Assembly (NCBI RefSeq): GCF_056746865.1
Contig: NZ_CM163382.1
Strand: one strand, 5' to 3'
Length of the DNA: 64,000 nt
In this document: piece after piece, positions 23,060-61,659 of the stretch
Layout: every line of letters begins with the position of its first letter
How positions within the stretch are numbered: position 1 is the first letter of the stretch
Translations under genes and position numbers: made by a program
The notes under the pieces: generated by a model
Databases searched by the model: none
Seen by the model: only the letters and a program-made list of their open reading frames with translations
Told to the model about the DNA's origin: nothing

Positions 23060-25153
23060 TCAACTCAACGCCCCCATAATCTTCAACTCCAGCTCATCCG
23101 GCACTTCGTTATACGACAGCACATGCAGACCCGGCGCAAACAACCTTGCATAACGCGCCAGCAAAGGACGCAGCTGCGGCGGCACCAGCAGCACAGGGGC
23201 TTTCCCCGCTGCTTTCATCTGCTCCTTCACCTGCGGCATCGTACTCTGGAACTGGTTGAGCATATTCGGGTCAACCGGCACGCTGTCGAGCATCACTTTG
23301 CCGGCCTGTTGCGCCTGATTCACCACATTGGTCAGCAGATTTTCCAGCTCATTATTCAGCGTATACACCGTCAGCTCCTGTTTGCGAACGAACGGATGGG
23401 TAATGCTGCGCCGCAGCGCCAGGCGCACATCGGCCGCCAGCAGAATATGATCTTTGGTCAATGTGCTACTGGCGACCAGCACAGTGGCGATGGTGACGAT
23501 ATCGCGCAGGGAAACGCCTTCGGTCAGTAATGCACGGTACACTTTCAGCAACTGGCTGTAATTGAGCGCTGCGCTCAAATCTTCCGCCAGTCGCGGTGCC
23601 ATCGACGACAAACGATTATGCAACTGCGTAATATCGTCATAGTTAAATAAATCAGGAATATAGCTGCGCACAATCTTATTCACATGGGTGGCAATCACGC
23701 TGGCGCTGTCGATCACCTGATACCCCATATTCAGCGCCTTCGCTTTCTGCGCGGGCTGGATCCAGGTCACCGGCATCCCGTACGCCGGGTCGTTCCCCAG
23801 CACGCCGTCAATCTCGCCGTAGGTTTCGCTGGAGGGCAGGGCCATCAGTTTATCCGCCGGAATATCCGCTTCATCAGCCTTAATGCCATTGATGAAAATG
23901 GCGTACTGGCTGGGCTTGAGGCGGAAGTTTTCCCGAATACGGATCTCCGGCAGCAGCACGCCGTTGCCGTCGGAAATCACCTGCCGCACGCCGCGAATCC
24001 GCTGGGTGAGCGGGTTACCTTGGGCTTTATCGACTAGCGCCACCAGCTTGTAGCCGAGGCTTAAGCTGATGGGCTCGATCAGCGGAATGGTTTCCCAACT
24101 GACCTGTTGCTCGCTGGTTTCGGTGATGGTTCGGGTCAGCGTTTCGAGGCTTTTCTCCTCCGCCTCCGCCGCCTGCGGGCGTTTGCTCATCCGCCAGCCG
24201 GTAAAGCCAAGCAGGGCGCTGAACAGCAAAAATGGCAGATGCGGCATCCCCGGCACCACCGCCAGCACAAACATGATCCCGGTGGCGGTGTAGAGCACCG
24301 ACGGGCTTGCCAGCAGCTGGTGGCGCACGTCATGGGCGATATCGCCGTTGTCGCTGACGCGGGTGACGATAATTGCCGCTGCGGTGGAGAGCAGCAGGGA
24401 CGGGATCTGCGCCACCAGCCCGTCGCCGATGGTCATCAGCACATACTGCTGGAAGGCGGCGTCGGCGCTCAGGTTGTATTTGAAGATGCCGATACAGACG
24501 CCGCCGATCAGGTTGATCGCCAGAATCATCATCCCGGCGATGGCGTCCCCGCGCACAAACTTCGATGCCCCGTCCATCGCGCCGTAGAAATCGGCCTCGC
24601 TGGCAACATCTTTACGCCGGGTTTGCGCCTGCGCCTGGTTGATCAACCCAGCGTTAAGATCGGCGTCAATCGCCATCTGTTTACCGGGCATCGCGTCTAA
24701 GGTAAAGCGGGCAGAAACCTCGGAAATACGCTCGGCCCCTTTGGTGACGACGATAAAGTTGATGATCATCAGGATGATAAACACCACAAAGCCGACGACA
24801 AAGTTGCCGCCAATCACCACCTGACCAAATGACTCAATTACCTTACCCGCCGCGCCCGCGCCGAGATGCCCGTGCAGCAACACCACGCGCGTAGAAGCAA
24901 CGTTGAGCGTCAGGCGCATTAAGGTGGTGATCAGCAAAATGGTCGGGAACAGGCTGAATTCCAGCGGCCTTTTCGCTGACACCGCCACCAGCAGTACCAT
25001 CACCGCCAGCACAATGTTGAAGGTGAACAGAATATCCAGCAGCGCAGGCGGCAGCGGCAAAATAACCATCGCCAGAATACACAGGATCACCAGCGGCACG
25101 CCGAGATTGCCGCCGCGCAGTAGCGCGAGGAACGATTTAGTTGTTTTCGCCAT
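23060..25153 (-). CDS. lfhA: Flag-2 flagellar export apparatus protein FlhA homolog
   Basis: 697-aa ORF with FlhA N-terminal TM region and C-terminal cytoplasmic domain. Confidence 0.9.
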   Translation of the reverse strand: MAKTTKSFLALLRGGNLGVPLVILCILAMVILPLPPALLDILFTFNIVLAVMVLLVAVSAKRPLEFSLFPTILLITTLMRLTLNVASTRVVLLHGHLGAGAAGKVIESFGQVVIGGNFVVGFVVFIILMIINFIVVTKGAERISEVSARFTLDAMPGKQMAIDADLNAGLINQAQAQTRRKDVASEADFYGAMDGASKFVRGDAIAGMMILAINLIGGVCIGIFKYNLSADAAFQQYVLMTIGDGLVAQIPSLLLSTAAAIIVTRVSDNGDIAHDVRHQLLASPSVLYTATGIMFVLAVVPGMPHLPFLLFSALLGFTGWRMSKRPQAAEAEEKSLETLTRTITETSEQQVSWETIPLIEPISLSLGYKLVALVDKAQGNPLTQRIRGVRQVISDGNGVLLPEIRIRENFRLKPSQYAIFINGIKADEADIPADKLMALPSSETYGEIDGVLGNDPAYGMPVTWIQPAQKAKALNMGYQVIDSASVIATHVNKIVRSYIPDLFNYDDITQLHNRLSSMAPRLAEDLSAALNYSQLLKVYRALLTEGVSLRDIVTIATVLVASSTLTKDHILLAADVRLALRRSITHPFVRKQELTVYTLNNELENLLTNVVNQAQQAGKVMLDSVPVDPNMLNQFQSTMPQVKEQMKAAGKAPVLLVPPQLRPLLARYARLFAPGLHVLSYNEVPDELELKIMGALS

Positions 25154-26276
25154 CCAGTTTAAGCACCTCTTTGGGAATGGAAATATGTCTGTTCAGGGCC
25201 GGGCGCGGCTGTGCACCATCGCGCCAGTGTTTCATTTGCAGGACGTAGGTCAGAACGTGGGCGATAGCCCGGTAAAGCTGAAAAGGAATTTGCTGATTCA
25301 CCTGAGTGGTGTAGTAAACCGAGCGCGCCAGCCGCGGGAACTCGACCACTTCCACCTGACTTTCAGCAGCGACCTGGCGAATATAGAGGGCGATTTCATC
25401 GGTGCCTTTCGCCACCACAAACGGCGCGGCGGCACGCGACTGGTCATACTGCAACGCCACGGCGTAGTGGGTCGGGTTGGTGATCACCACGTTGGCCTTT
25501 GGCACCACTTTGCGAATTTGCCCCATCGCCAGTTGCCGTTGCAGCCGCCGCACGCGCGCCTTCACTTCCGGCTTGCCTTCCTGATTTTTGTACTCTTCTT
25601 TCAGTTCTTGTTTGGTCATCTTCAGCCCTTTGGTGAACAGGGCTTTCGCCAGCGGCACGTCGAGAAGCGCAAAGAAAATAAACAGGATGACAAAGTTGCG
25701 CATCACGCTGGCGTAGAGCGACAAACCGTCATTCATCGCCAGTTTGAACGGCAGCGCCTGCAGGCCGAGAAAGGCGGCAAAGTTATTGCGCAGGCTTACC
25801 CACAGCATCACCAGCACCACGGCAGACTTCACCGTCATCTTTCCCGTTTCCGCCAGATGTTCACTGGAAAACAGCCGCCTAATCCCTTTTAACGGACTGA
25901 TTTTGCTGAAATCCGGGAGGATTTTTTTCGGCAGAAACAGCCAGCCGCCGGGCACCAGTGAGGAGAGCAGCGCGGCGGCGGGCATTGGCAGCAAGGTAAG
26001 AATAAACTTGCCGAGAATTAACAGGTGATGGCGCAGAAACTGGCCGATAGCGTCCGGGTTATTAATCTCCTGCGCGTACTGATGCACGCTGATAAAACTC
26101 TCGCGCACAAAATCGGCATACCACGGGAAGCTGCTGGAGATCACCACAAACGCCGCAAACAGGCTCGCCGCCAGCCCCATATCCTTCGAGCGCGGCAGTT
26201 GCCCCTCTTCACGCGCTTTACGCAGCTTTTGCGCCGAGGGTTTCTCTGTTTTTTCTTCGCTGCTGCTATCCGCCAT
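25137..26276 (-). CDS. lfhB: Flag-2 export apparatus protein FlhB homolog
   Basis: 379-aa ORF with FlhB features, including the NPTH autocleavage site. Confidence 0.9.
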   Translation of the reverse strand: MADSSSEEKTEKPSAQKLRKAREEGQLPRSKDMGLAASLFAAFVVISSSFPWYADFVRESFISVHQYAQEINNPDAIGQFLRHHLLILGKFILTLLPMPAAALLSSLVPGGWLFLPKKILPDFSKISPLKGIRRLFSSEHLAETGKMTVKSAVVLVMLWVSLRNNFAAFLGLQALPFKLAMNDGLSLYASVMRNFVILFIFFALLDVPLAKALFTKGLKMTKQELKEEYKNQEGKPEVKARVRRLQRQLAMGQIRKVVPKANVVITNPTHYAVALQYDQSRAAAPFVVAKGTDEIALYIRQVAAESQVEVVEFPRLARSVYYTTQVNQQIPFQLYRAIAHVLTYVLQMKHWRDGAQPRPALNRHISIPKEVLKLDGENN

Positions 26277-27048
26277 AGTGACCTTTCAGCGCGTCGAGTT
26301 GTTGCAGGACAAAATTCGCCAGATGCAGATAGTGATCCGGCAGGTTGTAAAGCAGGGTGGCAAAGCAGACCAGCCCCACCAGCATGTTGATGGGAAAGCC
26401 GAGCGAAAAGAGGTTCAGCGGCGGCGCAATGCGGTTAAGCAGGCCAAAGCAGCCCTGCACAATCAGCATGATAAAAGTGGTCGGCAGCGCCAGCAGCGAT
26501 GCGGACGCCAGCACCCAGCTAAAGGCCAGCGCGATGGTGCGCAGGGTTTGCGGATGCAGCGCGTTGCCGATCGGCCAGTAGGTGAAGCCCTTATACAAAA
26601 CGCTCACCAGCAGCAGATGCCCGTCCATGGCAAAAAATAGCAGGATCGCATAGACGTTAATTAACTCCGCCAGCACGGTGGTCGATGCGCCGCTGCTCGG
26701 GTCGTTCATCACCGCCATGCTCATCCCCATATTGAACGAGAGAATTTGCCCGGCGAGTTGTAGCGCGAGAAACAGAAACTGAAACATCAGCCCGAACAAC
26801 ATGCCCCATAAAATTTGCTCCACCGTCAGGATCAGGCTGTTGAGCGATAGCAAATCATGGGGAATGGGATGGGGGATCAACGGCGTGATGATGATCGCCA
26901 GCGCCAGCGACAAAATAATCCTCACACGAACGGTCAGGGCGCTGTTATCCAGCACCGGCACATAGCGCAGAAACGCCATAATGCGCACGAAGGGGAACCA
27001 CAGCCCCAGCGCCAGATCCATCAGTTGCGTAACGTCGCTTGTGCGCAT
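26266..27048 (-). CDS. lfiR: Flag-2 export apparatus protein FliR homolog
   Basis: Polytopic membrane ORF; start taken at MRTSDVTQLMDLALGLWFPF just after the fliQ stop. Confidence 0.8.
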   Translation of the reverse strand: MRTSDVTQLMDLALGLWFPFVRIMAFLRYVPVLDNSALTVRVRIILSLALAIIITPLIPHPIPHDLLSLNSLILTVEQILWGMLFGLMFQFLFLALQLAGQILSFNMGMSMAVMNDPSSGASTTVLAELINVYAILLFFAMDGHLLLVSVLYKGFTYWPIGNALHPQTLRTIALAFSWVLASASLLALPTTFIMLIVQGCFGLLNRIAPPLNLFSLGFPINMLVGLVCFATLLYNLPDHYLHLANFVLQQLDALKGHYGG

Positions 27049-27049
27049 C

Positions 27050-27322
27050 TTAATGCACCAGCAGGGCGGCCTGGGTAAACAGGTGAATGCAGAGATCATG
27101 CAACTGGATAATCATCCATTTGCCGCACACGCCCAGCACCACCAGCGTGACAATCAGCCTTGGCAAAAAGCTCAGGGTCTGTTCATTAATCTGCGTCACC
27201 GCCTGGAACACGCTCACCAGCAGGCCGACCAGCAGGCTTGGCACCACCAGTACCGAAACCAGCAAAATCACTACTTTAATGCCGCTGGCGACAATGTCGG
27301 CGGCTACGTCTACGGTCAACAT
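27050..27322 (-). CDS. lfiQ: Flag-2 export apparatus protein FliQ homolog
   Basis: 90-aa two-TM ORF MLTVDVAADIVASGIKVV…. Confidence 0.85.
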   Translation of the reverse strand: MLTVDVAADIVASGIKVVILLVSVLVVPSLLVGLLVSVFQAVTQINEQTLSFLPRLIVTLVVLGVCGKWMIIQLHDLCIHLFTQAALLVH

Positions 27323-27324
27323 AA

Positions 27325-28077
27325 TCAGCCCAGCCCCAGCCCGCGAATGCTGGTGGTGAGCGTACCGATGGTCAGCGACCAGCCGTCGATCAGCACAAAC
27401 AGCATCAGCTTAAAGGGCAGCGAAACGATCAGCGGCGACAGCATCATCATCCCCATCGCCATCAATACGCTGGCGACAATCAGGTCGATAACCAGAAACG
27501 GGATGTAAATCATAAAGCCAATCTGGAAAGCGGTTTTCAGCTCGCTCAACACATAGGCGGGCACCACAATCGAGAGATCCTGATCGGCAGCATTGCCCTT
27601 TGCGCCGCCGATGGTCATGATTTGCGCCATCGCTTTTTTGTCGGTCTGCGCCAGCATAAAGCGTTTCAGCGGCGTCGCGGCGGTGCTTAACGCATCGGTC
27701 AGGGTTATCTGATCGTTTTCAAACGGCACCACCGCGTGGTCGTAAATATTGAGCCAGACAGGGCGCATCACCAGCATGGTGAGGGAGAGCGCAATACCAA
27801 TCAGAATGCGGTTTGGCGGCGTTTGTTGCAGCCCCAGCGCCTGGCGCAGCAGCGACAGCACGATAATAAAGCGCGTAAAGCAGGTCATCATCAGCACCAT
27901 CGTCGGCAGCAAACCGACGAGGGTCATCAGAATCAGCACCTGGATTTTGACGCTGTACTCCTGAGTGTTGCCGTGGGTGACCACGTTAAGCAGCGCAATA
28001 TCGCCCCCCTGGGCCAACGCCACCGGCGCAAGCGCCAGCAGCCCAAGGCCCAGCGTCAGTTGAGTGCGGCGTTTCAT
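27325..28077 (-). CDS. lfiP: Flag-2 export apparatus protein FliP homolog
   Basis: 250-aa ORF with signal peptide and FliP-like TM core. Confidence 0.9.
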   Translation of the reverse strand: MKRRTQLTLGLGLLALAPVALAQGGDIALLNVVTHGNTQEYSVKIQVLILMTLVGLLPTMVLMMTCFTRFIIVLSLLRQALGLQQTPPNRILIGIALSLTMLVMRPVWLNIYDHAVVPFENDQITLTDALSTAATPLKRFMLAQTDKKAMAQIMTIGGAKGNAADQDLSIVVPAYVLSELKTAFQIGFMIYIPFLVIDLIVASVLMAMGMMMLSPLIVSLPFKLMLFVLIDGWSLTIGTLTTSIRGLGLG

Positions 28078-28445
28078 GGTGCCAGGTCGTTGATATCGCG
28101 GGTGTTAAACTCCAGCACGCGCAGGCCGTACTTCTCGTTGACCACCACCACTTCTGCTTTGCCCAGCAGGATATTGTTCACTTTAATATCCAGCGGCTCC
28201 CCGGCGAGTTTATCCAGCTCAATCACCGTGTCGTCGTCGATGTTTAGCAGGTCGGCTAACATAATTTCCACCGACGACACTTCCAGCGTTAAGGTCACCG
28301 GAATGCGTTTCAACAGCGTCATCGAGTCGGAAAAGCGGTCTTCCAGGCGGGTGACCAGCGTTTCAGCGTCGGCGGATTTCGCGACAGGCGCAACTTCATC
28401 GGTGAGGCCAAAATCCCCGGCTAAAATATCTTCTTGCTTACTCAT
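28074..28445 (-). CDS. lfiN: Flag-2 C-ring protein FliN homolog
   Basis: Start MSKQEDILAGDF… overlapping the fliM stop; C-terminal SpoA-type domain. Confidence 0.8.
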   Translation of the reverse strand: MSKQEDILAGDFGLTDEVAPVAKSADAETLVTRLEDRFSDSMTLLKRIPVTLTLEVSSVEIMLADLLNIDDDTVIELDKLAGEPLDIKVNNILLGKAEVVVVNEKYGLRVLEFNTRDINDLAP

Positions 28446-29289
28446 GGCTATTCTCATTTTTGCCCGCCAGCTCCGACAAAAACAGTTTGTCTTTGTCTTC
28501 CACAATCAGGGCGCTAAATAATTCAGATTGCCCAATCGCCACCGGGAACGTTTCTCCCAGCGAGATGGGTAAAATATCCCCGGCTTTTATCTGCGTGAGA
28601 TCCGCGACATTCAGCGACAGCTCGGCGATTTTGACGTTCAGGGTCAGCGGCAGGGAGCGGATGATTTCTTTAATCAGGGCCGGTTTATTAACGGATTTCG
28701 CCACCTGCTGCGGTTTACTGTGCTCGCTGTGGCGGATCAGATTCAAAATAAAATCGGTGTGGGCGTCGTCGAGCAAAATACGAAAACTGCTCTCTTCATC
28801 GTCCGCAAGGGTAAAGGTTAATTGATACGCCCAGTGGGTAATCACCGTGCTGCTGTCCAGTTTTAATTTCAGCGCAATACCGGAGGTTTGCAGATTAAAT
28901 ATCAGCGTGCAGATATCCAGCGCCAGACGGTTTTTTAAACGCGTTTCGGTTTTGGTCGGCAACCCGTTATGGGCTTTCGCCTCTTCAAGAGACGACTCCA
29001 GACCATAAAAATTGCCCAGCAGCATTAACAATAAGGAGCGATCAATATCAAACGCCAGATGCCCGACCTGGGAAACCATCAGTTCGGCGTTTTTATTAAT
29101 AATATCCATTTCGCAGCCAATCTTTTTTAAGGTGATATTGCTGCGATGCTTTTTGAGAAAGTAGCTGCCAAGATGCGAATCAATCACGTCAAAATTCCCC
29201 GTAAACAGGGTCGGCAGGCGATGGTAGGGGCGTCCGAGCCGATTACCTTCTAATTTAAAGATGCCTGGCGTTTTACTGTACTTCAGCAT
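28438..29289 (-). CDS. lfiM: Flag-2 C-ring protein FliM homolog
   Basis: 283-aa ORF; position and FliM-like content. Confidence 0.8.
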   Translation of the reverse strand: MLKYSKTPGIFKLEGNRLGRPYHRLPTLFTGNFDVIDSHLGSYFLKKHRSNITLKKIGCEMDIINKNAELMVSQVGHLAFDIDRSLLLMLLGNFYGLESSLEEAKAHNGLPTKTETRLKNRLALDICTLIFNLQTSGIALKLKLDSSTVITHWAYQLTFTLADDEESSFRILLDDAHTDFILNLIRHSEHSKPQQVAKSVNKPALIKEIIRSLPLTLNVKIAELSLNVADLTQIKAGDILPISLGETFPVAIGQSELFSALIVEDKDKLFLSELAGKNENSHE

Positions 29290-29440: not shown

Positions 29441-29552
<112 letters not shown>

Positions 29553-29676: not shown

Positions 29677-30657
29677 ATGTCTGAACTTATTGCAACTGCC
29701 GCTTCCAGCATTAACGCTTTTACTCTGGCAAAGCGTGTCGCCGCATTTAACGTGCCGGTGCTCATTCAGGGCGAAACCGGTGCGGGCAAAGAGTGCGTGG
29801 CGAAATATATTCACTCCGTAGCCTTTGGTGAAAACGCGCCCTATATCGGCGTGAACTGCGCGGCGATCCCGGAAAATATGCTGGAAGCGACCTTATTTGG
29901 CTACGACAAAGGCGCATTTACCGGCGCAATTGCCAGCGTACCAGGCAAAATGGAACTGGCGAATAACGGCACCTTATTGCTCGATGAAATTGGCGATATG
30001 CCGCTGGCGCTACAGGCCAAAATATTACGCGTATTGCAGGAACAGCAGGTTGAGCGATTAGGCAGTAACCGACAAATTAAACTCAATTTTCGCCTGATTG
30101 CCTGCACCAATAAAAACCTTGAGCAGGAAGTCGCCGCCGGGCGTTTTCGTGAAGATCTCTATTATCGTCTGGCGGTTATTCCTATTACCATGCCGCCGCT
30201 GCGTGAACGCCTGAACGATATTATCCCGCTGGCAGAGTCATTTATTAAAAAATACTCCACAGTGCTGGTGAAAAATATCACCCTTTCAGAATCTACTCGC
30301 CGGGCGCTGCTCAATTACCGCTGGCCCGGCAACGTGCGCCAGCTGGAGAACGCCATTCAGCGTGGAATGATTTTAAATCGCGACGGCGTGATTTTCCCGG
30401 ATGCCTTAGGCCTGCCGGAAATAGACGTTGCCGATCACAGTGAACTGCAATGGCCTGTTCAGCCCTCCGTATCTGTTGCGGAAACCAGCGATTTAGGCCA
30501 GGCCGGACGTAGCGCCCAGTATCAATATATCGCCGACCTGATGCGTAAATATCAGGGCAACCGCAGCAAAATTGCCGACCTGTTAGGCATTACCCCGCGC
30601 GCACTGCGCTATCGACTGGCCTCCATGCGCAAGCAAGGTATCGAAGTTTTCTCCTGA
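29677..30657 (+). CDS. lafK: Sigma-54-dependent transcriptional activator LafK (AAA+ plus HTH, no receiver domain)
   Basis: 326-aa ORF beginning in the sigma-54 interaction domain (Walker A GETGAGKE, GAFTGA) with a C-terminal Fis-type HTH. Confidence 0.85.
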   Translation: MSELIATAASSINAFTLAKRVAAFNVPVLIQGETGAGKECVAKYIHSVAFGENAPYIGVNCAAIPENMLEATLFGYDKGAFTGAIASVPGKMELANNGTLLLDEIGDMPLALQAKILRVLQEQQVERLGSNRQIKLNFRLIACTNKNLEQEVAAGRFREDLYYRLAVIPITMPPLRERLNDIIPLAESFIKKYSTVLVKNITLSESTRRALLNYRWPGNVRQLENAIQRGMILNRDGVIFPDALGLPEIDVADHSELQWPVQPSVSVAETSDLGQAGRSAQYQYIADLMRKYQGNRSKIADLLGITPRALRYRLASMRKQGIEVFS

Positions 30658-30671
30658 CCCGGAAGTTAAAA

Positions 30672-31013
30672 ATGAGCATTACCACAATCAACAGCACCAT
30701 GCAGGCGCAAATCATGCAGGACGTGCAGCGGATGCAGGCCAACGCCCAGGCACCGGTGCTGCCCGCCATGACCTTCAGTTCCACCGACCCGGACGTTTCG
30801 TTTAACCGCATTATGTCCGGCGCGCTCGGTCACGTTGACCAGTTCCAGCAGGTGGCGGAGCAGCAGCAAACAGCTATCGACACGGGCAAAAGTGATGATT
30901 TAGCAGGTGCGATGATCGCCAGCCAGCAGGCGTCGCTCTCTTTCTCCGCGCTGGTGCAGGTGCGCAACAAAATCGCCACCGGATTTAACGATCTGATGAG
31001 TATGTCGATCTAA
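30672..31013 (+). CDS. lfiE: Flagellar hook–basal body protein FliE homolog
   Basis: 113-aa ORF; FliE-like size and position before fliF. Confidence 0.8.
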   Translation: MSITTINSTMQAQIMQDVQRMQANAQAPVLPAMTFSSTDPDVSFNRIMSGALGHVDQFQQVAEQQQTAIDTGKSDDLAGAMIASQQASLSFSALVQVRNKIATGFNDLMSMSI

Positions 31014-31017
31014 CCCT

Positions 31018-32664
31018 ATGAATGCACAAATAAAGAAGTTAACCCAGGCGTTTCCGGCGTTTCGACTGCGTCTTGCAGATAACAAACGCTGGGCATTGAT
31101 GGCGGGAGTGGGGCTTGCCGTTGCGGCGACGGCGATTATCGTTAGTGTGCTGTGGACCGGTAATCGCGGCTACGTCTCGCTCTACGGACGCCAGGAAAAT
31201 CTGCCCGTGTCGCAGATTGTCACCGTGCTGGACGGTGAAAAGCTCAGCTACCGCATTGACCCGCAGAGCGGGCAAATTCTGGTGCCGGAAGACGCGTTGT
31301 CGAAAACGCGCATGACCCTTGCCGCCAAAGGTGTGCAGGCGATATTGCCCAGCGGCTACGAGCTGATGGACAAAGACGAAGTGCTCGGCAGCAGCCAGTT
31401 CGTGCAGAACGTGCGCTACAAACGCAGCCTCGAAGGGGAGCTGGCGCAGAGCATTATGTCGCTGGACGCGGTGGAGAGCGCACGGGTGCATCTGGCGCTC
31501 AACGAAGAAAGCTCGTTTGTGGTCAGCGATGAGCCACAAAACAGCGCCTCGGTAGTGGTGCGCCTGCACTATGGCGCGAAGCTGAATATGGACCAGGTCA
31601 ACGCCATTATGCATCTGGTGTCCGGCAGTATTCCGGGGCTACAGGCCAGCAAAGTCAGCGTCGTCGATCAGGCGGGAAATCTGCTGACCGACGGCATTGG
31701 CGCAGGCGAGGCGGTTTCTGCCGCAACCCGTAAACGCGATCAGATCCTCAAAGATATTCAGGACAAAACCCGCGCCAGCGTGGCGAACGTGCTGGATTCG
31801 CTGGTTGGTACGGGGAATTACCGCGTCAGCGTGATGCCGGATCTCGACCTCAGTACCATCGACGAAACCCAGGAACACTACGGCGACGCGCCGAAAATCA
31901 ACCGCGAAGAGAGCGTGCTGGACAGCGACACCAATCAGGTGGCGATGGGCGTGCCCGGTTCACTCAGCAACCGTCCGCCAGTTGCGGCGAATCAGATGAC
32001 CAACGGTACGGAAGAAAACCGCTCACCGGAAGCGTTATCCAAACACAGCGAAAGCAAGCGCGATTACTCTTACGACCGCAGCGTCCAGCATATTCAGCAT
32101 CCTGGTTTTGCGGTGAAACGCCTCAACGTGGCGGTGGTGCTCAATCAAAACGCCCCGGCGCTGAAAAACTGGAAGCCGGAGCAGACTGCGCAACTGACCG
32201 CGTTGCTGAACAATGCCGCCGGGATCGACGTCCAGCGCGGTGACAATCTCACCTTATCGCTGCTTAACTTTGTCCCGCAGGCGGTGCCGGTCGAACCAAT
32301 TATTCCGCTGTGGAAAGATGACAGCGTGCTGGCCTGGGTACGCCTGATTGGCTGCGGCCTGCTGGCGCTGTTGTTGCTGTTCTTTGTGGTGCGCCCGGTA
32401 ATGAAACGCCTGACGGCGGTGCGTGCGCCGGTTATCACACCAGAACCGGAAGCTGTCAGCGAACCGTGGATTGCCATGCCGGAAGAGGAGCGCAAAAACG
32501 TCGACCTGCCGTCGCTGCCCGGCGATGACAGCCTGCCGTCCCAGAGTTCCGGCCTCGAAGTAAAACTCGAGTTCCTGCAAAAACTGGCCATGAGCGACAC
32601 CGATCGCGTAGCCGAAGTTCTCAGACAATGGATCACCAGCAATGAGCGAATTGACAACAAATAA
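31018..32664 (+). CDS. lfiF: Flagellar MS-ring protein FliF homolog
   Basis: 548-aa ORF with N-terminal TM and FliF-like content. Confidence 0.9.
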   Translation: MNAQIKKLTQAFPAFRLRLADNKRWALMAGVGLAVAATAIIVSVLWTGNRGYVSLYGRQENLPVSQIVTVLDGEKLSYRIDPQSGQILVPEDALSKTRMTLAAKGVQAILPSGYELMDKDEVLGSSQFVQNVRYKRSLEGELAQSIMSLDAVESARVHLALNEESSFVVSDEPQNSASVVVRLHYGAKLNMDQVNAIMHLVSGSIPGLQASKVSVVDQAGNLLTDGIGAGEAVSAATRKRDQILKDIQDKTRASVANVLDSLVGTGNYRVSVMPDLDLSTIDETQEHYGDAPKINREESVLDSDTNQVAMGVPGSLSNRPPVAANQMTNGTEENRSPEALSKHSESKRDYSYDRSVQHIQHPGFAVKRLNVAVVLNQNAPALKNWKPEQTAQLTALLNNAAGIDVQRGDNLTLSLLNFVPQAVPVEPIIPLWKDDSVLAWVRLIGCGLLALLLLFFVVRPVMKRLTAVRAPVITPEPEAVSEPWIAMPEEERKNVDLPSLPGDDSLPSQSSGLEVKLEFLQKLAMSDTDRVAEVLRQWITSNERIDNK

Positions 32665-33652: not shown

Positions 33653-33654
33653 CC

Positions 33655-35695: not shown

Positions 35696-35697
35696 CT

Positions 35698-51319: not shown

Positions 51320-51335
51320 CTCTTTCAGGAACAGT

Positions 51336-52730: not shown

Positions 52731-52739
52731 GGAACGATA

Positions 52740-53096: not shown

Positions 53097-53990
53097 TCAG
53101 CATTTCTGCACAGTATTTAACAACTTCTCTAAATTCTGATACATCGCGCTATTAATATCGCTATTCTGCCAGCTATCCACATTAAAAGTTAATTGCCAGC
53201 TACCGTTGCACTGGTTGCGCAGAACAATATCACTCTCCAGTCGGTTACGAACATATTTATAATAGGTTGTCATTGTCATATTATGCGCTGACAATAAATT
53301 ATCGAGTTTGTCTTTTCCTGGTGCGAGGGTTTGTGACAGTAACGGTACGGAATTATTTTCCTTTCCAGAACTAAGATGAAATATTTTTATTCTTGGACTG
53401 TTAATTGACTCTTTTACCAGTTGCGGGGCGTCAGGTGTACTTTTCAAGTGTGAATACCCCACGGTTGAGCCAACCAATATAACAGCTGCGGCCAACGCTA
53501 ACCCCATCAGTCCTTTATGTTTTTTTCTAACAGGCACATACGGTGTTGTCGAAGATATCTCTTCTGGGGCTGTATCCTGTATCTGGTCGGTAATAATCAG
53601 CGCTTCTGCAGGCGATGACTCCGGCAAAGACACATACTCTTTATTGCATAAGTAACCTTTCTTCGGAATTGTTTTAATAATGTTCTGTTGTTTGCCATCA
53701 TCGTCGATAGCAACGCGCAACGCATGGATCGCCGTCGGCAGGCTGTTTCCGCCGACAATACGGTTCTTCCATACTTCGGCACATAAATAAGATCGCGATA
53801 AAACCACATCGGCATTTTTTGCTAATGTTTCCAGCAAAATAAAATGGTATTCGCCGAGACGACGTGTTTCACCCGTTTCGCAATGTATTAAGGCATTAAG
53901 CGACGGGTCCATCCGCCAGTTGTTGATAATAATACTCATAGTTGAGTTTACCTTAGCAAGGGATAAATGTTTCCTGATAGTGCTTTGCAT
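53097..53990 (-). CDS. lafZ: ToxR/CadC-like membrane-anchored transcriptional regulator (LafZ-like)
   Basis: 297-aa ORF: N-terminal winged-helix OmpR/PhoB-type DNA-binding region, a single TM segment (GLMGLALAAAVILVGSTVGY) and a C-terminal periplasmic part. AT-rich. Confidence 0.6.
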   Translation of the reverse strand: MQSTIRKHLSLAKVNSTMSIIINNWRMDPSLNALIHCETGETRRLGEYHFILLETLAKNADVVLSRSYLCAEVWKNRIVGGNSLPTAIHALRVAIDDDGKQQNIIKTIPKKGYLCNKEYVSLPESSPAEALIITDQIQDTAPEEISSTTPYVPVRKKHKGLMGLALAAAVILVGSTVGYSHLKSTPDAPQLVKESINSPRIKIFHLSSGKENNSVPLLSQTLAPGKDKLDNLLSAHNMTMTTYYKYVRNRLESDIVLRNQCNGSWQLTFNVDSWQNSDINSAMYQNLEKLLNTVQKC

Positions 53991-55339: not shown

Positions 55340-55382
55340 TGGCGGACTTGCCGATGCGGCGTAAACGCCTTATCCGGCCACG

Positions 55383-55432
55383 AACAACACCGCCTGCGGG
55401 CGGTGTTGTGCTTTCAGCGGCAGGCTTTTTTC
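55383..55432 (+). terminator. Putative terminator after lafA
   Basis: Hairpin aacaacaccgcc tgc gggcggtgttgt, then a second GC stem with a T-run. Confidence 0.45.
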
Positions 55433-55496: not shown

Positions 55497-55512
55497 TGGC
55501 ACGCCTTTTGCC
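55497..55512 (+). promoter_or_regulatory. Sigma-54 (-24/-12) promoter upstream of lafB (fliD)
   Basis: TGGCAC GCCTT TTGCC, exact TGGCAC-N5-TTGC match, about 32 bp upstream of the lafB ATG. Confidence 0.7.
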
Positions 55513-55543: not shown

Positions 55544-56860
55544 ATGATTAACCCAAGAACCATTGCGCAAGAAATTGCTTATGCGGATGTCGCCACCCAG
55601 GCGGCAAATTTGCAGGAGAAGCAGACCGAGCTGGACGCTGAAAGCAGCGGCCTGGACTCGCTCAGCTCGGCGTTAAGCGATTTCCAGAGCGCCGTTGACG
55701 CGCTGAACAGCGATACCGACGGCCCGGTGACTTTTGCCGCCACCAGCAATAATGACTCGGCGACCGTTTCCGCTAACTCGCAGGCACAGGCGGGAAGCTA
55801 CTCGTTTTTCGTTGAGCAACTGGCGCAGGGGCAGCAAACCACGTTCAGTATGGGCGACGACGCCTTTTCCGCTACCGGTACTTTTGAACTGACGATGGGC
55901 GACAGCACCATGGATATCGATCTGTCGGCGGCAGATCAGAACGGTGACGGCGACGGTTTTATCGACGCCAGCGAACTGGTGAACGCGATTAACGACTCCG
56001 ATGATAATCCAGGCGTTTCAGCGGCGTTGGTGAAAACCGACGGCACCACCACCATTATGCTCACCTCCGATAGCACCGGGGCGCAGAGCGCGTTTTCGGT
56101 GAGCGTAACGGGGCATGATGCCAGCAACGATAGCACCAGCGCGCCCGTTGCCACGGTTGTTTCCTCAGCCCAGGACGCGATTATTCATCTCGGTAGCGCC
56201 ACGGGCCCGGCGATCACCAACAGCAGCAATACGTTTGATGATGTGATCCCCGGCGTCACCATGACTTTTACCGAAGTCAGCGATTCTGACAGCGACCTCA
56301 CCACTTTTAACATCAGCGAAGATTCCAGCTCCAGCCAGGAGAAAGTACAGACTTTTGTCGATGCCTATAACACCTTGATTGATACGGTTGATTCGCTAAC
56401 CACTCACGGTGATGACAGTACCAGCGCCGGGGTATTTGCAGGCGACGCCGGACTCAGTTCACTGGCGAACCAGCTCGATGACATCGCCCATGCCAGCTAC
56501 AACGGCGTGTCGATTGTTGACTATGGCATCACCCTCGATTCTCACGGCCACTTACAGATTGACTCCGACCAGTTCAACGACGAAATGGCGAAAAATCCTG
56601 ACGGTCTGACCTCTATTTTCGTTGGCGACAACAGCATGGTAGCGCAGATGGACGACCTGATTAACACCTACACGGACTCCAGCAACGGCATCATCACCCT
56701 GCGCCAGCAGAACATTGACGATCAGATGAGCAAAATTCAGGACGAAGGCGATCAGCTTACTGATACCTATAACGCCAACTACGACCGTTATCTGGAGGAG
56801 TACACCAACACGCTGGTCGAGGTGTACACCATGAAAGCCAGCATGGCGGCATTCGCGTAA
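55544..56860 (+). CDS. lafB: Flagellar filament cap protein FliD homolog
   Basis: 438-aa ORF with FliD-like termini. Confidence 0.85.
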   Translation: MINPRTIAQEIAYADVATQAANLQEKQTELDAESSGLDSLSSALSDFQSAVDALNSDTDGPVTFAATSNNDSATVSANSQAQAGSYSFFVEQLAQGQQTTFSMGDDAFSATGTFELTMGDSTMDIDLSAADQNGDGDGFIDASELVNAINDSDDNPGVSAALVKTDGTTTIMLTSDSTGAQSAFSVSVTGHDASNDSTSAPVATVVSSAQDAIIHLGSATGPAITNSSNTFDDVIPGVTMTFTEVSDSDSDLTTFNISEDSSSSQEKVQTFVDAYNTLIDTVDSLTTHGDDSTSAGVFAGDAGLSSLANQLDDIAHASYNGVSIVDYGITLDSHGHLQIDSDQFNDEMAKNPDGLTSIFVGDNSMVAQMDDLINTYTDSSNGIITLRQQNIDDQMSKIQDEGDQLTDTYNANYDRYLEEYTNTLVEVYTMKASMAAFA

Positions 56861-56882
56861 CTCAGAAGGAATATCCCTAAAG

Positions 56883-57275
56883 ATGTACCAAGTACAGGAC
56901 GGCTATTCGCAATATAAAGAGGTCGATCTCGCGGCGCGTACTGCGGCGGCCTCTCCGCTTGAACTGGTGCTGGTGCTGTTCGCCGGGCTTCTCGACGAGC
57001 TGGAACGCGCCAAAAGCCATATTGAAGGGCGGCGTTTCGAGAAGAAAGCCCAGAGCATCAATAAATGCATCGACATTCTCAATGCGCTCACCAGTTCGCT
57101 GGAGTTTGAAACCGGCGGCGAGCTGGTGGTCAACCTTTCGCGACTCTATGACCACTGTGTGTATCGCTTGTATGAGGCCAGCGGCGAACTGTCGGCAGAG
57201 AAAATCGATGAAGTGATGCTGATCTTAAGCAACCTGCGCGAAGGCTGGGAAGGGCTTTCGGGCAAGCTGGGTTAA
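56883..57275 (+). CDS. lafC: Flagellin chaperone FliS homolog
   Basis: 130-aa ORF MYQVQDGYSQYKEVDLAARTAAASPLELVLVLF…, FliS-like. Confidence 0.85.
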   Translation: MYQVQDGYSQYKEVDLAARTAAASPLELVLVLFAGLLDELERAKSHIEGRRFEKKAQSINKCIDILNALTSSLEFETGGELVVNLSRLYDHCVYRLYEASGELSAEKIDEVMLILSNLREGWEGLSGKLG

Positions 57276-57279
57276 GACG

Positions 57280-57591
57280 ATGGAAAAACAACGCAGGCAA
57301 CTTTTCGCACTGGTTGAGGCGATGAACGAAGCCCTCGACAAGCAACGCTGGCGACGGCTTCCGGCACTGCATCAGCAGTTGATGCGCCAGTTTCACGATT
57401 ACGTGGCGGCGGAAACCGACGCGGCGCAGTTGTGTGCGGTGAAGGCGCAGCTGTACGGCGCGTTTAATGCCCTGATTAAACGGCGCGAGCAGCGTGCAGA
57501 AGTGTTGAAGGCGCGTATGGAACAGCATCAGCGGCATCAGGAAGGCGTACTGGCCTACTCAATTGTTAATTTACTTTCGGAGAAGTCATGA
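57280..57591 (+). CDS. lafD: FliT-like small helical protein
   Basis: 103-aa helical ORF after fliS. Confidence 0.5.
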   Translation: MEKQRRQLFALVEAMNEALDKQRWRRLPALHQQLMRQFHDYVAAETDAAQLCAVKAQLYGAFNALIKRREQRAEVLKARMEQHQRHQEGVLAYSIVNLLSEKS

Positions 57592-58646
57592 ATCCGGCAT
57601 TGCTTGCCACGCTCGGAACGCTTGCGGAAACGGCGTCGCTGAAAACGGACATCTTACCGCCGGTGAGCGGTGAAAACGCGCCCGCGTTTACCCTGCCGAA
57701 AATGGCGGGCGCGGCGGTGGCAGAGCGCGTTCATAGCGCTAAAACCAGTCAGCAACAGGCGACGCGCCCGCAGGAGAACGATCCGGTGGCGATGCAGGCG
57801 CTAATGGCGCTGTTACTTCCGCAACCTGCCGCGCCGCATCAGGAGACGCCGCAGCCGCGAAACGCCGCAACATCGCCAGTTATTCAGCAATTGACGAAAG
57901 CGGTGGTGCAAAACGCGCCGCAACGCTCGACACAACAGCAGGAACTCACGCCGTTGCCGCCACAGTTGCAGGAACTGATCGGTCAGTTGCCGCAGGCGAA
58001 ACCCGAACAGCAGGCCAGACTGGCGACTTACGCCAGTGAAGATTTACATGCCATTGCGCCGACGCAGCCGCGCGTCTCAACACAGCCAGCTCGCCCGAAA
58101 ACTGAACTAACCCGTGTGACCGCGCGCCCGCAGGTCGAGCGTAAAACGGAAAAAGTGACGGACAGCGAACCGGTTATTGCGCGTGCGGTGTTGCAGGTTA
58201 AGACGCCGGAACTGGTCAGCGATCATCAGGAGATTGTCGCCAAACCAGCCACGCTTTCGATGGACGAACTGGGTGAAAAACTGACGACGCTTTTGAAAGA
58301 TCAGATCCACTTTCAGCTCAACAAACAACAGCAGATCTCCACCATCCGTCTCGATCCACCGTCGCTTGGCAAGCTTGAGATCGCCGTACAACTCGACAAC
58401 GGCAAACTGATGGTGCACATCGGCGCGAATCAAAGCGAAGTTTGCCGCGCGTTACAGCAGTTTAGCGACGATCTCCGCCAGCATCTGACGGCGCAAAATT
58501 TTATGGAGGTGAACGTACAGGTTTCCTCCGAAGGGCAGTCGCAGCAACAACAGTCGGGCCATCAGCAGGAAGAGGTGAGTGCCGCCTTACAGCTTGATGA
58601 TGCGCCTCAATTTCAACAGAACGAATCCGTTTTGATCAAAGTGTAA
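57588..58646 (+). CDS. lafE: Hook-length control protein FliK homolog
   Basis: 352-aa ORF with Pro/Gln-rich middle and FliK-type C-terminal domain (…ISTIRLDPPSLGKLEIAVQLDNGKLMVHIGANQ…). Confidence 0.8.
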   Translation: MNPALLATLGTLAETASLKTDILPPVSGENAPAFTLPKMAGAAVAERVHSAKTSQQQATRPQENDPVAMQALMALLLPQPAAPHQETPQPRNAATSPVIQQLTKAVVQNAPQRSTQQQELTPLPPQLQELIGQLPQAKPEQQARLATYASEDLHAIAPTQPRVSTQPARPKTELTRVTARPQVERKTEKVTDSEPVIARAVLQVKTPELVSDHQEIVAKPATLSMDELGEKLTTLLKDQIHFQLNKQQQISTIRLDPPSLGKLEIAVQLDNGKLMVHIGANQSEVCRALQQFSDDLRQHLTAQNFMEVNVQVSSEGQSQQQQSGHQQEEVSAALQLDDAPQFQQNESVLIKV

Positions 58647-58653
58647 AGGCAAT

Positions 58654-59121
58654 ATGAAGAAAATCGTGGTGGCGGGCGTGGTCAGCGCCGTTCTGGCGTT
58701 GGTGGTGGGGGCCGGAGCTGGATGGGGTGTCTGGCATCATTATGCCGGAAAAGGAAAACCGACGGCCGTTGCACGGGCGGAAACGGTGGAAACCCTGGAT
58801 GAAAGCAAAAGCGTGTTTGTGACGTTGCCGGAAACCATTGTCACGCTGCATGACAACAACGGTGCGGACCATTATTTGTCGGCGGAATTAGTGATGGTGG
58901 TCGCCAGTGATAAAGAAGCGGAAAAAATAAAACATCAGGAGCCGCTGTATCAAAGTATTGCAGTTGAATGCCTGACGGAAATGAAATTTGAAGATTTGCG
59001 CGGCATGAAAATATCCGCCATCCGCAAACTGATTTCTGATGCGTTAAAGAAAGATCTTCAGCGTCGCAAAATGAGCGCACCGTATAAGGATTTGCTGGTG
59101 AAAAAAGTGGTCTTCCAGTAA
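58654..59121 (+). CDS. lafF: Flagellar basal-body protein FliL homolog
   Basis: 155-aa ORF with N-terminal TM and FliL-like body. Confidence 0.8.
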   Translation: MKKIVVAGVVSAVLALVVGAGAGWGVWHHYAGKGKPTAVARAETVETLDESKSVFVTLPETIVTLHDNNGADHYLSAELVMVVASDKEAEKIKHQEPLYQSIAVECLTEMKFEDLRGMKISAIRKLISDALKKDLQRRKMSAPYKDLLVKKVVFQ

Positions 59122-59140
59122 TCACCAGGCGGATATAAAC

Positions 59141-59857
59141 ATGCTACAGGACGTATTCGAGTCAGAAGAATTTGCTGCCGCGCCGGTATTAACCCCGCAG
59201 CAGGAGAGCCACTACTTGCAGGCCTATCTACCGTTGGTGCGTAAAGTGGTGCGGCAACTTGCTCCGCAGTGTAATTGCATTATTGACCGTCAGGATATGG
59301 AACAAACGGCGTTAATGGGGCTGCTTAATGCCATTCGTCGCTATGGGCTGCCGGACGAAGGTTTTGCGGGCTATGCCGTGCACCGGATTCGCGGCGCGAT
59401 CCTGGATGAGCTGCGCGCTCTCGACTGGCGACCGCGCCAGCTGCGACAGAAATATCATCAGATGAAAGATCTGATTCGTGAGACGCGCAAAAAACTGGGG
59501 CACGAACCGGAGTGGTCAGAACTGGCCGTGGAAGGGATTTCGCATGAAGATTATCTCGAATATCAGCAACTGGAAGGGGCGGAAACGCTCGCCAGCCTTG
59601 ACGAACTGCTGAACGGTGAAGGGCCAGGCATTCCACTTGCTGGCAGGGAACTGGAAGATCAGTTTGTTACCCAGCAAATGCTGCAATACGCGCTTTCACA
59701 ATTAAGCGAAAAAGAGCAACTGATCCTCTCCATGTATTACCAGCATGAGATGAATCTCAAAGAGATTGCGCTGGTATTAGGGCTAACCGAAGCCCGAATT
59801 TGTCAACTGAATAAACAGATCGCGCAGAAAATTCGTGATTTTGTCTATCCGAATTAA
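59141..59857 (+). CDS. lafS: Flagellar sigma-28 factor (FliA homolog)
   Basis: 238-aa ORF with sigma-70 family regions 2 and 4 (…RIRGAILDELRALDWRPR… ; …LKEIALVLGLTEARICQLNKQ…). Confidence 0.85.
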   Translation: MLQDVFESEEFAAAPVLTPQQESHYLQAYLPLVRKVVRQLAPQCNCIIDRQDMEQTALMGLLNAIRRYGLPDEGFAGYAVHRIRGAILDELRALDWRPRQLRQKYHQMKDLIRETRKKLGHEPEWSELAVEGISHEDYLEYQQLEGAETLASLDELLNGEGPGIPLAGRELEDQFVTQQMLQYALSQLSEKEQLILSMYYQHEMNLKEIALVLGLTEARICQLNKQIAQKIRDFVYPN

Positions 59858-59869
59858 AGTGAAGAAATC

Positions 59870-60733
59870 ATGCAAAAAATATTAGGTTTACTGGTGGTGC
59901 TCGGCTGCGTATTTGGCGGTTATTTTGAAGCGGGCGGGCAATTAGTGGCTATCTGGCAACCGGCGGAAATGATCATTATTTTGGGGGCGGGTTTCGGGGC
60001 AATGATTATTGGTAATCCGAAACATGTGCTGAAAGAGATTGCTCATCAAATTAAAGGCGTGATCAGTAAAAAACAGCTCGGGCCGGAGTTTCAGCGCCAG
60101 CTATTAATGTGTCTGTATGAGTTGCTCGAAATGGTGCAAAACGGTGGTCTGCGCATGTTGGATCAGCATATTGAGCAGCCGGAAGAGAGCACCATTTTCC
60201 AGAAATACCCGCTGGTGTTAACCCAGAAGCGGCTGGTGACCTTTATTGCCGATAACTTTCGCCTGATGGCGATGGGCAAAATCGACGCCCACGAACTGGA
60301 AGGGATTCTCGATCAGGAGCTGGACACCGCCGAAGAGTCGCTGCTAACGCCGTCACGCTCGCTGCAACGTACCGCCGAGGCGATGCCAGGGTTTGGCATT
60401 TGCGCGGCGGTGCTGGGCATCATCATCACCATGCAGTCGATTGATGGGTCTATCGCCCTGATTGGCCTGAAAGTGGCGGCAGCGCTGGTGGGGACGTTTT
60501 TAGGCGTCTTTATCTGCTACTGCCTGATGGACCCGCTCGCCAACGCCATGGAACAACAGGCGCGGGCGGAACATTCTTTGCTGGAATGCGTGCGCACCGT
60601 GCTGGTGGCGCAGGCAGGCGGCAAACCGACGCTGCTGGCAGTGGACGCCGGGCGTAAGCTGCTGCATCTGGCGTCCAAACCGACCTTCGCCAACCTCGAC
60701 GCGTGGGTGAATGCGATGCTGGAGCAAGAATAA
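59870..60733 (+). CDS. lafT: Flagellar motor stator protein MotA homolog
   Basis: 287-aa four-TM ORF with MotA-like content. Confidence 0.85.
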   Translation: MQKILGLLVVLGCVFGGYFEAGGQLVAIWQPAEMIIILGAGFGAMIIGNPKHVLKEIAHQIKGVISKKQLGPEFQRQLLMCLYELLEMVQNGGLRMLDQHIEQPEESTIFQKYPLVLTQKRLVTFIADNFRLMAMGKIDAHELEGILDQELDTAEESLLTPSRSLQRTAEAMPGFGICAAVLGIIITMQSIDGSIALIGLKVAAALVGTFLGVFICYCLMDPLANAMEQQARAEHSLLECVRTVLVAQAGGKPTLLAVDAGRKLLHLASKPTFANLDAWVNAMLEQE

Positions 60734-60735
60734 GC

Positions 60736-61659
60736 ATGAGAAAGACGGGCAACCGCCGCGAGCGTGGGGCAAAAACCACCATCGTCCGGCGGCAGATCAA
60801 AAAAAATCATGCCGGGCATCACGGCGGGGCGTGGAAGGTGGCGTTCGCCGACTTTACTTTGGCAATGATGGCGCTATTTATGACGCTGTGGATTGTCAAC
60901 AGCGTCAGTAAATCCGAGCGTGAAAGCATTATCGCCGCGCTGCACGGGCAGTCGATTTTTAACGGTGGCGGGCTGTCGCCGTTAAATAAAATCAGACCGT
61001 CTCATCCGCCAAAACCTGCCACCGTGGCGGTGCCGGAAGAGACGGAGAAAAAAGCGCATGACGTCAACGAGAAAACGGCGCTGCTGAAGAAGAAATCCGC
61101 TACTGAGCTTGGCGAGCTGGCAACCAGTATCAACACCATTGCCCGTGATGCGCATATGGAAGCGAATCTGGAGATGGAGATTGTTCCCCAGGGACTGCGC
61201 GTGCTGATTAAAGATGACCAGAACCGCAATATGTTTGAACGCGGCAGCGCGCAGATTATGCCGTTCTTTAAAACTTTGCTGGTGGAGTTAGCACCGGTTT
61301 TTGATTCGCTCGACAATAAGATCATCATCACCGGGCATACCGATGCGATGGCCTACAAAAACAATATCTACAACAACTGGAACCTTTCGGGCGATCGCGC
61401 GCTTTCAGCTCGTCGGGTGCTGGAAGAGGCCGGAATGCCGGAAGATAAAGTGATGCAGGTAAGTGCAATGGCGGACCAGATGCTGCTGGATGCCAAAAAT
61501 CCGCAAAGCGCGGGCAACCGGCGCATTGAGATTATGGTGCTGACCAAAAGTGCGTCCGATACGCTGTATCAATACTTTGGTCAGCATGGGGATAAAGTGG
61601 TGCAACCGCTGGTGCAAAAGCTGGATAAGCAGCAGGTGCTTTCGCAGCGAACGCGTTAA
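60736..61659 (+). CDS. lafU: Flagellar motor stator protein MotB homolog (OmpA-like C-terminus)
   Basis: Start MRKTGNRRER… within ORF 60703..61659; TM/plug region (…FADFTLAMMALFMTLWIV…) and peptidoglycan-binding motif (…ITGHTDA…NW.LS..RA…). Confidence 0.85.
   Translation: MRKTGNRRERGAKTTIVRRQIKKNHAGHHGGAWKVAFADFTLAMMALFMTLWIVNSVSKSERESIIAALHGQSIFNGGGLSPLNKIRPSHPPKPATVAVPEETEKKAHDVNEKTALLKKKSATELGELATSINTIARDAHMEANLEMEIVPQGLRVLIKDDQNRNMFERGSAQIMPFFKTLLVELAPVFDSLDNKIIITGHTDAMAYKNNIYNNWNLSGDRALSARRVLEEAGMPEDKVMQVSAMADQMLLDAKNPQSAGNRRIEIMVLTKSASDTLYQYFGQHGDKVVQPLVQKLDKQQVLSQRTR

Follow-up and report, generated by a model that had tools for sequence, protein, structure and literature searches.

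Lateral flagellar (Laf) systems are known from Vibrio and Aeromonas, in which surface- or viscosity-induced expression and swarming have been demonstrated. In Escherichia coli, the locus of a second flagellar system, Flag-2, was reportedly described by Ren, Beatson, Parkhill and Pallen in 2005, and we know of no demonstration of its expression in this species. The present analysis concerns positions 23060 to 61659 of a 64,000-nucleotide stretch of contig NZ_CM163382.1 (the window), which a preliminary description made from the sequence alone had read as an intact Flag-2 locus between rayT and dinB. We hold with high confidence, the rest of our best explanation included, that this interval is the chromosomal E. 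coli Flag-2 (lateral-type) locus, complete and uninterrupted.

Comparison with described lateral flagellar systems

The Laf systems of Vibrio parahaemolyticus and Aeromonas hydrophila share with the window the regulator LafK, a sigma-28 factor and an anti-sigma factor of their own, a short lateral flagellin and a stator of the MotA/MotB type. They also resemble it in forming one self-contained gene set without chemotaxis genes (none occurs in the PGAP gene list of the locus), and the window proteins pass the lateral-type models of NCBIfam. In contrast to Vibrio and Aeromonas Laf, the E. coli Flag-2 includes two proteins specific to Flag-2, LafW and LafZ. Additionally, it coexists with a peritrichous primary system, whereas the Vibrio and Aeromonas systems coexist with a polar one (PMC6993521).

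Within E. coli, the Flag-2 locus of strain 042 (NC_017626.1, 284682-323159) occupies the same site as that of the window, with the same 44 genes, gene order and cargo in the regions VR1 and VR2, and many of its proteins carry the same RefSeq WP accession. The two sequences are collinear from yafL to yafP, apart from two extra pieces in the window, the insertion sequence (IS) ISEc31 and a 127-bp bacterial interspersed mosaic element (BIME). The window lfgD is 3 codons longer and its lafE 1 codon shorter than the 042 copies. The synonymous differences from 042 form a mosaic: lfhA-lfiE and lfgG-lafB are identical, whereas lfiF-lfgF and lafC-lafU show a proportion of synonymous differences (pS) of 0.09-0.21, a pattern that points to homologous recombination within the locus.

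The Flag-2 loci of EC958, O6:H16 and ST1193 lie at the same site and have the same core genes as the window, at about 94-95% nucleotide identity, and all three have an unbroken lfgC. The VR2 toxin-antitoxin pair is missing from the O6:H16 and ST1193 loci, and ST1193 also differs in its VR1 content. The lfiF (fliF) gene of ST1193 has a frameshift (10079-11726 of that locus sequence), which could be an assembly error, and lafV of O6:H16 has an internal stop (23479-24408 of that locus sequence).

Gene content and intactness of the locus

The locus is already known, and its identical sequence is present in RefSeq many times. Across their entire length, window segments 22500-46000 and 40000-63900 both matched dozens of complete E. 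coli RefSeq chromosomes at 100% identity. The NCBI annotation (PGAP) of one identical record, NZ_CP023142.1 (strain CFSAN061770), was transferred into the window orientation. According to this annotation and that of 042, the chromosomal site of Flag-2 extends from rayT (yafM) to dinB. Both limits of the interval coincide with stop codons: that of lfhA, on the minus strand, has its last base at 23060, and that of lafU lies at 61659. To the left of rayT, PGAP places yafL; beyond lafU, it places dinB, yafN, the pseudogene yafO, and yafP.

The interval contains 44 open reading frames (ORFs). In the left part, the order is lfhA-lfhB-lfiRQPNM (minus), lafK-lfiEFGHIJ (plus), and then tagD, a GT2 glycosyltransferase gene and lafV. 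In the right part, it is lfgN-lfgM-lfgA (minus), lfgBCDEFGHIJKL-lafW (plus), the toxin-HTH pair, lafZ (minus), lafA, and lafBCDEF-lafS-lafT-lafU. The ORF map, the PGAP names and BLAST collinearity with 042 thus give the three-cluster order lfhAB-lfiRQPNM-lafK-lfiEFGHIJ, lfgNMABCDEFGHIJKL and lafWZABCDEFSTU, and the three-cluster Flag-2 architecture with VR1 and VR2 is given likewise in PMC6993521. The non-core cargo, VR1 and VR2, amounts to about 5.6 kb of the interval.

All 44 ORFs were translated, and each was in frame, ended in a terminal stop and had neither internal stops nor frameshifts. The PGAP annotation of the identical record carried no pseudogene flag on any Flag-2 gene. In tblastn searches against 042, full-length alignments with 92-100% amino-acid identity were obtained for every gene but lfgC, whose product aligned only from residue 16. 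This late start is due to a frameshift in the 042 copy, not in the window copy, as in the nucleotide alignment 042 lfgC has 2 bp inserted at codon 15-16 that are absent from the window.

Profile searches gave the same picture. The NCBIfam models were matched essentially end to end by FlhA, FlhB, FliR/Q/P, FliN, FliE/F/G/H/I/J, FlgC/D/E/F/G/H/I/K, LafA, FliS, LafS, MotA and LafU, and by FlgB on its best model; FlgL and FliD covered their models less completely. LafA matched NF033376, 'lateral flagellin LafA' (lat_flg_LafA_1), over residues 1-304 of 304 with 667 bits (curated cutoff 440), and it had full-length matches to PDB flagellins. The curated cutoffs were also exceeded by LafU (NF005273; 575 bits, cutoff 383), LafS (NF009091; 447, cutoff 339), FliI (773, cutoff 715), FlgE (538, cutoff 467), FlgH (432, cutoff 323) and FliH (317, cutoff 192). 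LafT scored 375 bits on TIGR03818 (cutoff 304), and LfgM matched TIGR03824. The NPTH autocleavage site of FlhB, the Walker A/P-loop AGSGVGKS of LfiI (FliI), the conserved MotB-type transmembrane Asp of LafU and the conserved Pro-containing motifs of LafT were all present.

The full second flagellar system announced by the preliminary description was therefore recovered, as orthologues of the 042 genes in the same order and at the same site, with all 44 ORFs open. Its statement that the structural genes are free of frameshifts agrees with the ORF translations, PGAP, NCBIfam and the 042 comparison. Two findings that it had named as able to overturn it were looked for: lfhA, lfiI and lafA proved uninterrupted, and the collinearity and protein identity with 042 identify the genes as Flag-2 orthologues. 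Its layout needed amendment, however. The content from lfhA to lafU stood, but the lfg cluster begins with lfgN and lfgM and not with lfgA. Likewise, the position between rayT and dinB was right, with ISEc31 to be added between rayT and lfhA, and TagD, GT2, LafV and the toxin-antitoxin pair to be added as cargo.

A few proteins stood apart in these searches. LfgJ (48524-48823), at 99 aa, corresponds to the rod-binding N-terminal part of FlgJ (model 20-91 of 294); it lacks the muramidase domain, and the locus holds no gene for another peptidoglycan hydrolase. Searches of Pfam, NCBIfam, the PDB sequences and PHROGs, and a comparison with the other Flag-2 proteins, gave no match for LafW; its literature label, 'hook-associated', was neither supported nor refuted by the profile and sequence searches. 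LafD was likewise without a match in NCBIfam, in PHROGs and among the remaining Flag-2 proteins. For the MotY-type stator accessory, which belongs to the lateral set of V. parahaemolyticus, no locus protein gave a match in NCBIfam, where the presence of a MotY model was unchecked.

Deletion of the locus in K-12 and other E. coli

K-12 MG1655 aligned only to window positions 22822-24763 and from 60888 onward, in blocks 94% and 96.5% identical. This limits the alignment to the two ends of the locus, so 24764-60887 (36,124 bp) is deleted in K-12. What K-12 keeps is the 3' 1.7 kb of lfhA (b0229, formerly fhiA) and the 3' 0.77 kb of lafU (b0230, formerly mbhA), both pseudogenes, and the view that K-12 is reduced to fhiA and mbhA fragments was borne out. 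The K-12 junction has exact microhomology of only 3 bp (GAT).

The deletion scar was scored in 5426 complete genomes with a 401-nt probe across the K-12 junction (at least 80% covered), and the lfiF-lfiJ block was used as a proxy for the Flag-2 locus. As a result, the K-12-type scar was found in 4087 genomes (75%) and the block in 1274 (23.5%); together they account for 98.8% of the genomes. The literature prevalence of Flag-2 in E. coli is about 20% (PMC4578781; PMC6993521), and our totals fit both this figure and one old deletion. We take it that most E. coli, K-12 included, lost the locus by a single 36.1-kb lfhA-lafU deletion that this strain did not undergo.

Selection on the Flag-2 genes

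The ratio of nonsynonymous to synonymous divergence (dN/dS) and pS were estimated by the Nei-Gojobori method over about 34 kb of coding sequence. Against 042, dN/dS was 0.09 and pS was mosaic; against the O6:H16 locus, the values were 0.06 and 0.17, and against the ST1193 locus, 0.064 and 0.175. Compared with the ST1193 alleles, LafA and LafT (59870-60733) had no amino-acid changes at 17-21% synonymous difference. Such dN/dS values (0.06-0.09) indicate strongly purifying selection and suggest that Flag-2 is probably used in nature. The constraint is unexpectedly strong for a system whose expression in E. coli has yet to be observed.

Regulators, promoters and proposed assembly

LafK (29677-30657) has an AAA+ sigma-54 interaction domain and a C-terminal helix-turn-helix (HTH), in a PspF-like layout. 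Its GAFTGA loop and Walker B motif are present, and its alignment to PspF starts at model position 7. A receiver domain is lacking, so the activity of LafK is probably set by the amount of protein and not by phosphorylation. The other E. coli loci sampled encode a LafK of the same length (326-328 aa).

Exact matches to the sigma-54 consensus numbered two in the 64-kb window, those before lfgB and lafB, with about 0.12 expected by chance in 128 kb (both strands). Sites with at most one mismatch were not above chance (6 seen, 7.45 expected), and weight was therefore placed only on the exact matches and their positions. The lfgB and lafB sigma-54 sites have also been reported in strain PCN033 (PMC4578781).

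In LafZ, an OmpR-type winged helix (Pfam Trans_reg_C, residues 25-97) is followed by a single hydrophobic segment and then a C-terminal domain, and the lafZ gene faces lafA across a divergent spacer of 485 bp with 35% GC. With this ToxR/CadC-like layout and its position opposite lafA over an AT-rich spacer, LafZ is a natural candidate for the sensory input, and thus the likely environmental signal receiver of the cascade.

From these parts, the following order of events can be proposed. LafK, controlled by its level, would fire the sigma-54 promoters of lfgB, lafB and lafV. On the model of other flagellar cascades, the sigma-28 factor LafS would be delivered by the lafB operon, held by LfgM until the hook-basal body is done, and would then drive lafA. 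Among the encoded products, LfhAB, LfiPQR and LfiHIJ account for the export gate and ATPase, and LfiF, G, M and N for the MS and C rings. LfgB-L account for the rod, rings, hook and junction, LafA for the filament, LafB for the cap and LafC for its chaperone, and LafT/LafU for a stator of the MotA/MotB type. Taken together, the genes encode a self-contained second flagellum of the lateral type found in Vibrio and Aeromonas. Table 1 lists the positions of these and the other features.

Table 1. Features of the Flag-2 locus and its borders (window coordinates)
Feature	Position	Strand	Location or remark	Basis
rayT (yafM), REP-associated tyrosine transposase	20863-21360	+	left flank	PGAP; 99.4% identical to 042 rayT
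Tandem REP/BIME array, ~100-bp units	21361-23059		rayT-lfhA spacer, split by ISEc31	REP consensus, Rfam naRNA4-type
ISEc31 (IS3 family), 1258 bp	21511-22768	-	absent from 042 and K-12	PGAP
lfiM-lfiN-lfiP-lfiQ-lfiR-lfhB-lfhA	23060-29289	-	C-ring and type III export gate	99.7-100% identical to 042; NCBIfam
BIME, convergent Y-type and Z-type REP	29456-29544		divergent lfiM-lafK spacer	REP consensus
lafK, then lfiE-F-G-H-I-J	29677-36132	+	MS ring, rotor switch FliG, export ATPase complex	042, NCBIfam, motifs
VR1 overall	36135-40262			NCBIfam, Pfam
TagD-like glycerol-3-phosphate cytidylyltransferase	36135-36539	+	VR1	NCBIfam, Pfam
GT2 glycosyltransferase, 823 aa	36683-39154	-	VR1; weak TagB/F-like C-terminal region	NCBIfam, Pfam
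Second inverted pair of the GC-rich repeat	39155-39332		GT-lafV spacer	spacer sequence
LafV, FliB-like flagellin lysine-N-methylase	39333-40262	-	VR1	weak FliB match
Sigma-54 promoter-like site CGGCACGCTTATTGCA, one mismatch	40297-40312	-	35 bp upstream of lafV	
Segment between lafV and lfgB	40389-41926	-	gene-order position of lfgN-lfgM-lfgA	PGAP, 042, NCBIfam
Exact sigma-54 consensus TGGCAC-N5-TTGC	41956-41971	+	37 bp upstream of lfgB	
lfgB-C-D-E-F-G-H-I-J-K-L and lafW	42008-52313	+	rod, hook cap, hook, L/P rings, hook-filament junction	042, NCBIfam
lfgC, intact	42346-42777	+		042 nucleotide alignment
BIME, 127 bp, absent from 042	43489-43615		lfgD-lfgE spacer	042 alignment, spacer sequence
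Three REPs (Y, Z, Y)	45583-45720		lfgF-lfgG spacer	spacer sequence, Rfam
GC-rich inverted pair of dispersed repeat CCCTCTCCC...GGGAGAGGG	46538-46743		lfgG-lfgH spacer	spacer sequence
BIME	48840-48925		lfgJ-lfgK spacer	REP consensus
VR2: Gp49/HigB-like RelE-superfamily toxin (52389-52730) and HTH antitoxin (52740-53039)	52389-53039	+		Pfam, PHROGs
lafZ, ToxR/CadC-like membrane-anchored regulator	53097-53939	-		Pfam Trans_reg_C, weak CadC match
lafA, lateral flagellin, 304 aa	54425-55339	+		NCBIfam NF033376; PDB flagellins
Partial REP and hairpin-plus-T-run terminator	55352-55415		lafA-lafB spacer	spacer sequence
Exact sigma-54 consensus site TGGCACGCCTTTTGC	55497-55512	+	32 bp upstream of lafB	
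lafB (FliD cap), lafC (FliS), lafD, lafE (FliK), lafF (FliL), lafS (sigma-28), lafT (MotA), lafU (MotB)	55544-61659	+		
dinB	61730-62785	+	right flank	PGAP, 042

Cargo genes

The VR1 enzymes (TagD, GT2 with its weak TagB-like region, and LafV) would place a glycan containing glycerol-phosphate, and methyl groups, on the flagellin. De Maayer et al. (PMC6993521) read the same gene set as flagellin glycosylation and methylation machinery. LafV had no Pfam match, and its match to the FliB methylase model of NCBIfam was sub-threshold (43.5 bits, cutoff 85).

The VR2 genes, between lafW and lafZ, lie 9 bp apart in the layout of a type II HigB/HigA-like system and form a putative toxin-antitoxin pair. 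The toxin matched Pfam Gp49 (PF05973, E = 1e-20) and a PHROG toxin family, and the antitoxin a PHROG HTH family. The pair was found in 71 of the 5426 complete E. coli genomes, and all copies were at least 99% identical, single-copy and chromosomal.

Repeats and the insertion sequence

The repetitive extragenic palindromic (REP) elements and GC-rich palindromes that had been noticed in the intergenic gaps were recovered by consensus matching, Rfam and reading of the spacers. With the 36-nt REP (Stern) consensus at 0-1 mismatch, eight matches were found in the window, all intergenic; the Y-type partners were added through a search for the CTTATC..GCCTAC core and by spacer reading. Six of the REP sites were matched by the Rfam model naRNA4, itself derived from a REP pair. 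The 127-bp BIME between lfgD and lfgE marks a recent REP gain or loss within the operon.

The GC-rich repeat CCCTCTCCC...GGGAGAGGG is distinct from REP and occurs in 4993 of the 5426 genomes, with a median of 11 places per genome; it is probably boxC.

ISEc31 ends in TGTAGTGG termini, is flanked by a 3-bp target duplication (ACA) and interrupts no gene; 042 has the empty site. PGAP names its product 'IS3-like element ISEc31 family transposase, programmed frameshift'. An Rfam match to the small RNA isrC (22578-22700, 150 bits) lies inside the element.

Neighbouring DNA

On the right of the locus, the yafO toxin gene (63133-63531) is interrupted by a stop at codon 66, as in 042, and the adjacent yafN antitoxin gene is intact. 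On the left, the dinJ-yafQ toxin-antitoxin pair, which in K-12 lies between dpaA and yafL, is missing in both the window and 042, with about 233 bp in its place (~19776-20009). Window positions 1-13000 begin with the last part of a type VI secretion cluster: the tssB start, hcp (936-1454), a truncated vgrG (1675-3576), a DUF4123 adaptor and two hypothetical proteins. After it come an ISAs1 split by a group II intron (Rfam 8451-8568 and 10195-10270; ltrA ~8943-10193) and then ISEc1. The same layout is found in 042.

Origin and use of the locus

That this strain retains an ancestral locus, as the preliminary description had it, has to be weighed against the explanation that the locus is a recently acquired genomic island. 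The GC content of 55-60%, above the E. coli average, would suit an island, as would the IS and REP arrays at the locus edge and the mosaic identity to 042, in which blocks of zero and of 9-21% synonymous divergence speak for recombination. Yet the insertion site and gene order are constant in all sampled lineages, Flag-2-negative genomes hold end fragments at one common junction, and the PGAP annotation has neither an integrase nor a tRNA gene at the borders. Moreover, in comparisons with the O6:H16, ST1193 and K-12 lineages, the flanking genes yafL, rayT and dinB (pS 0.16-0.34) were as diverged as the Flag-2 genes (~0.17). Recent horizontal acquisition was rejected because flank and locus are equally diverged, and we consider an island very improbable. 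This equal divergence and the single junction in 75% of genomes are consistent with the retention of an ancestral locus. At the sequence level, they support vertical descent with loss of Flag-2, which Ren et al. are said to have proposed in 2005.

Regarding its use, we tentatively propose, with less than even confidence, that Flag-2 here is a working, conditionally expressed second flagellum, switched on via LafZ and LafK and built of glycosylated and methylated flagellin; the inducing conditions would be low temperature, high viscosity, surfaces or mucus. Several points weigh against this proposal and also against our best explanation. 'Intact' does not mean 'expressed', and missense or regulatory defects may escape a reading of the sequence. 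LfiM matched the FliM model of NCBIfam weakly. A sigma-54 site was sought before the lafK and lfiM operons and not found. Nor was there a convincing sigma-28 promoter before lafA or lafT: when the enteric consensus TAAAG-N14-16-GCCGATAA was scanned for, the only matches were scattered ones with 2-3 mismatches, mostly within genes, so the LafS step is one that we infer. Decay has occurred sporadically in other lineages (042 lfgC, ST1193 lfiF, O6:H16 lafV). Finally, in the ST131 strain EC958, with its intact lfgC, the single E. coli strain with such an experiment in the literature consulted, LafA was not detected and motility at 28 or 37 °C did not depend on lafA; several genes of 042 are absent from the EC958 locus (PMC4637896). 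A locus that is intact on paper but cryptic, silent and contributing nothing, at an earlier stage of species-wide decay, would agree with the lack of LafA and of Flag-2-dependent motility in EC958 (PMC4637896), with the deletion scar in 75% of genomes, with the scattered pseudogenes in other Flag-2 loci and with the 35% GC of the lafZ-lafA spacer, as expected for a silenced region. However, dN/dS stays at 0.06-0.09 across some 34 kb of coding DNA, none of the 44 ORFs is interrupted, and the flagellin and stator A are invariant as proteins despite 17-21% synonymous divergence, which is unexpected for a neutral locus; we regard a cryptic state as unlikely, though still a serious contender. A machine mainly for protein secretion, adhesion or surface sensing seems improbable to us. 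De Maayer et al. (PMC6993521) speculated on a non-locomotory role of Flag-2 in strains that already have Flag-1, and such a role would fit a species with a full primary flagellar system, a locus without chemotaxis genes, and the putative secreted effectors in the Flag-2 cargo of other taxa (PMC6993521). But the stator LafT/LafU, FliG, FliL, the filament, the cap and hook-length control are under strong purifying selection, and secretion alone would not need them; moreover, the cargo here consists of flagellin-modification enzymes and a toxin-antitoxin pair, not of effectors. The proposal of a working flagellum is kept alive, despite the negative result in EC958, because dN/dS is about 0.06 and LafA is invariant at a pS of 0.17.

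The discovery value of the locus is small, as it was described in 2005 and surveyed across the Enterobacterales in 2020. Its lineage is nevertheless better material than 042 for testing lateral flagella and their signal in E. coli, because every gene is open, lfgC included, and the full modification and regulatory set is present.

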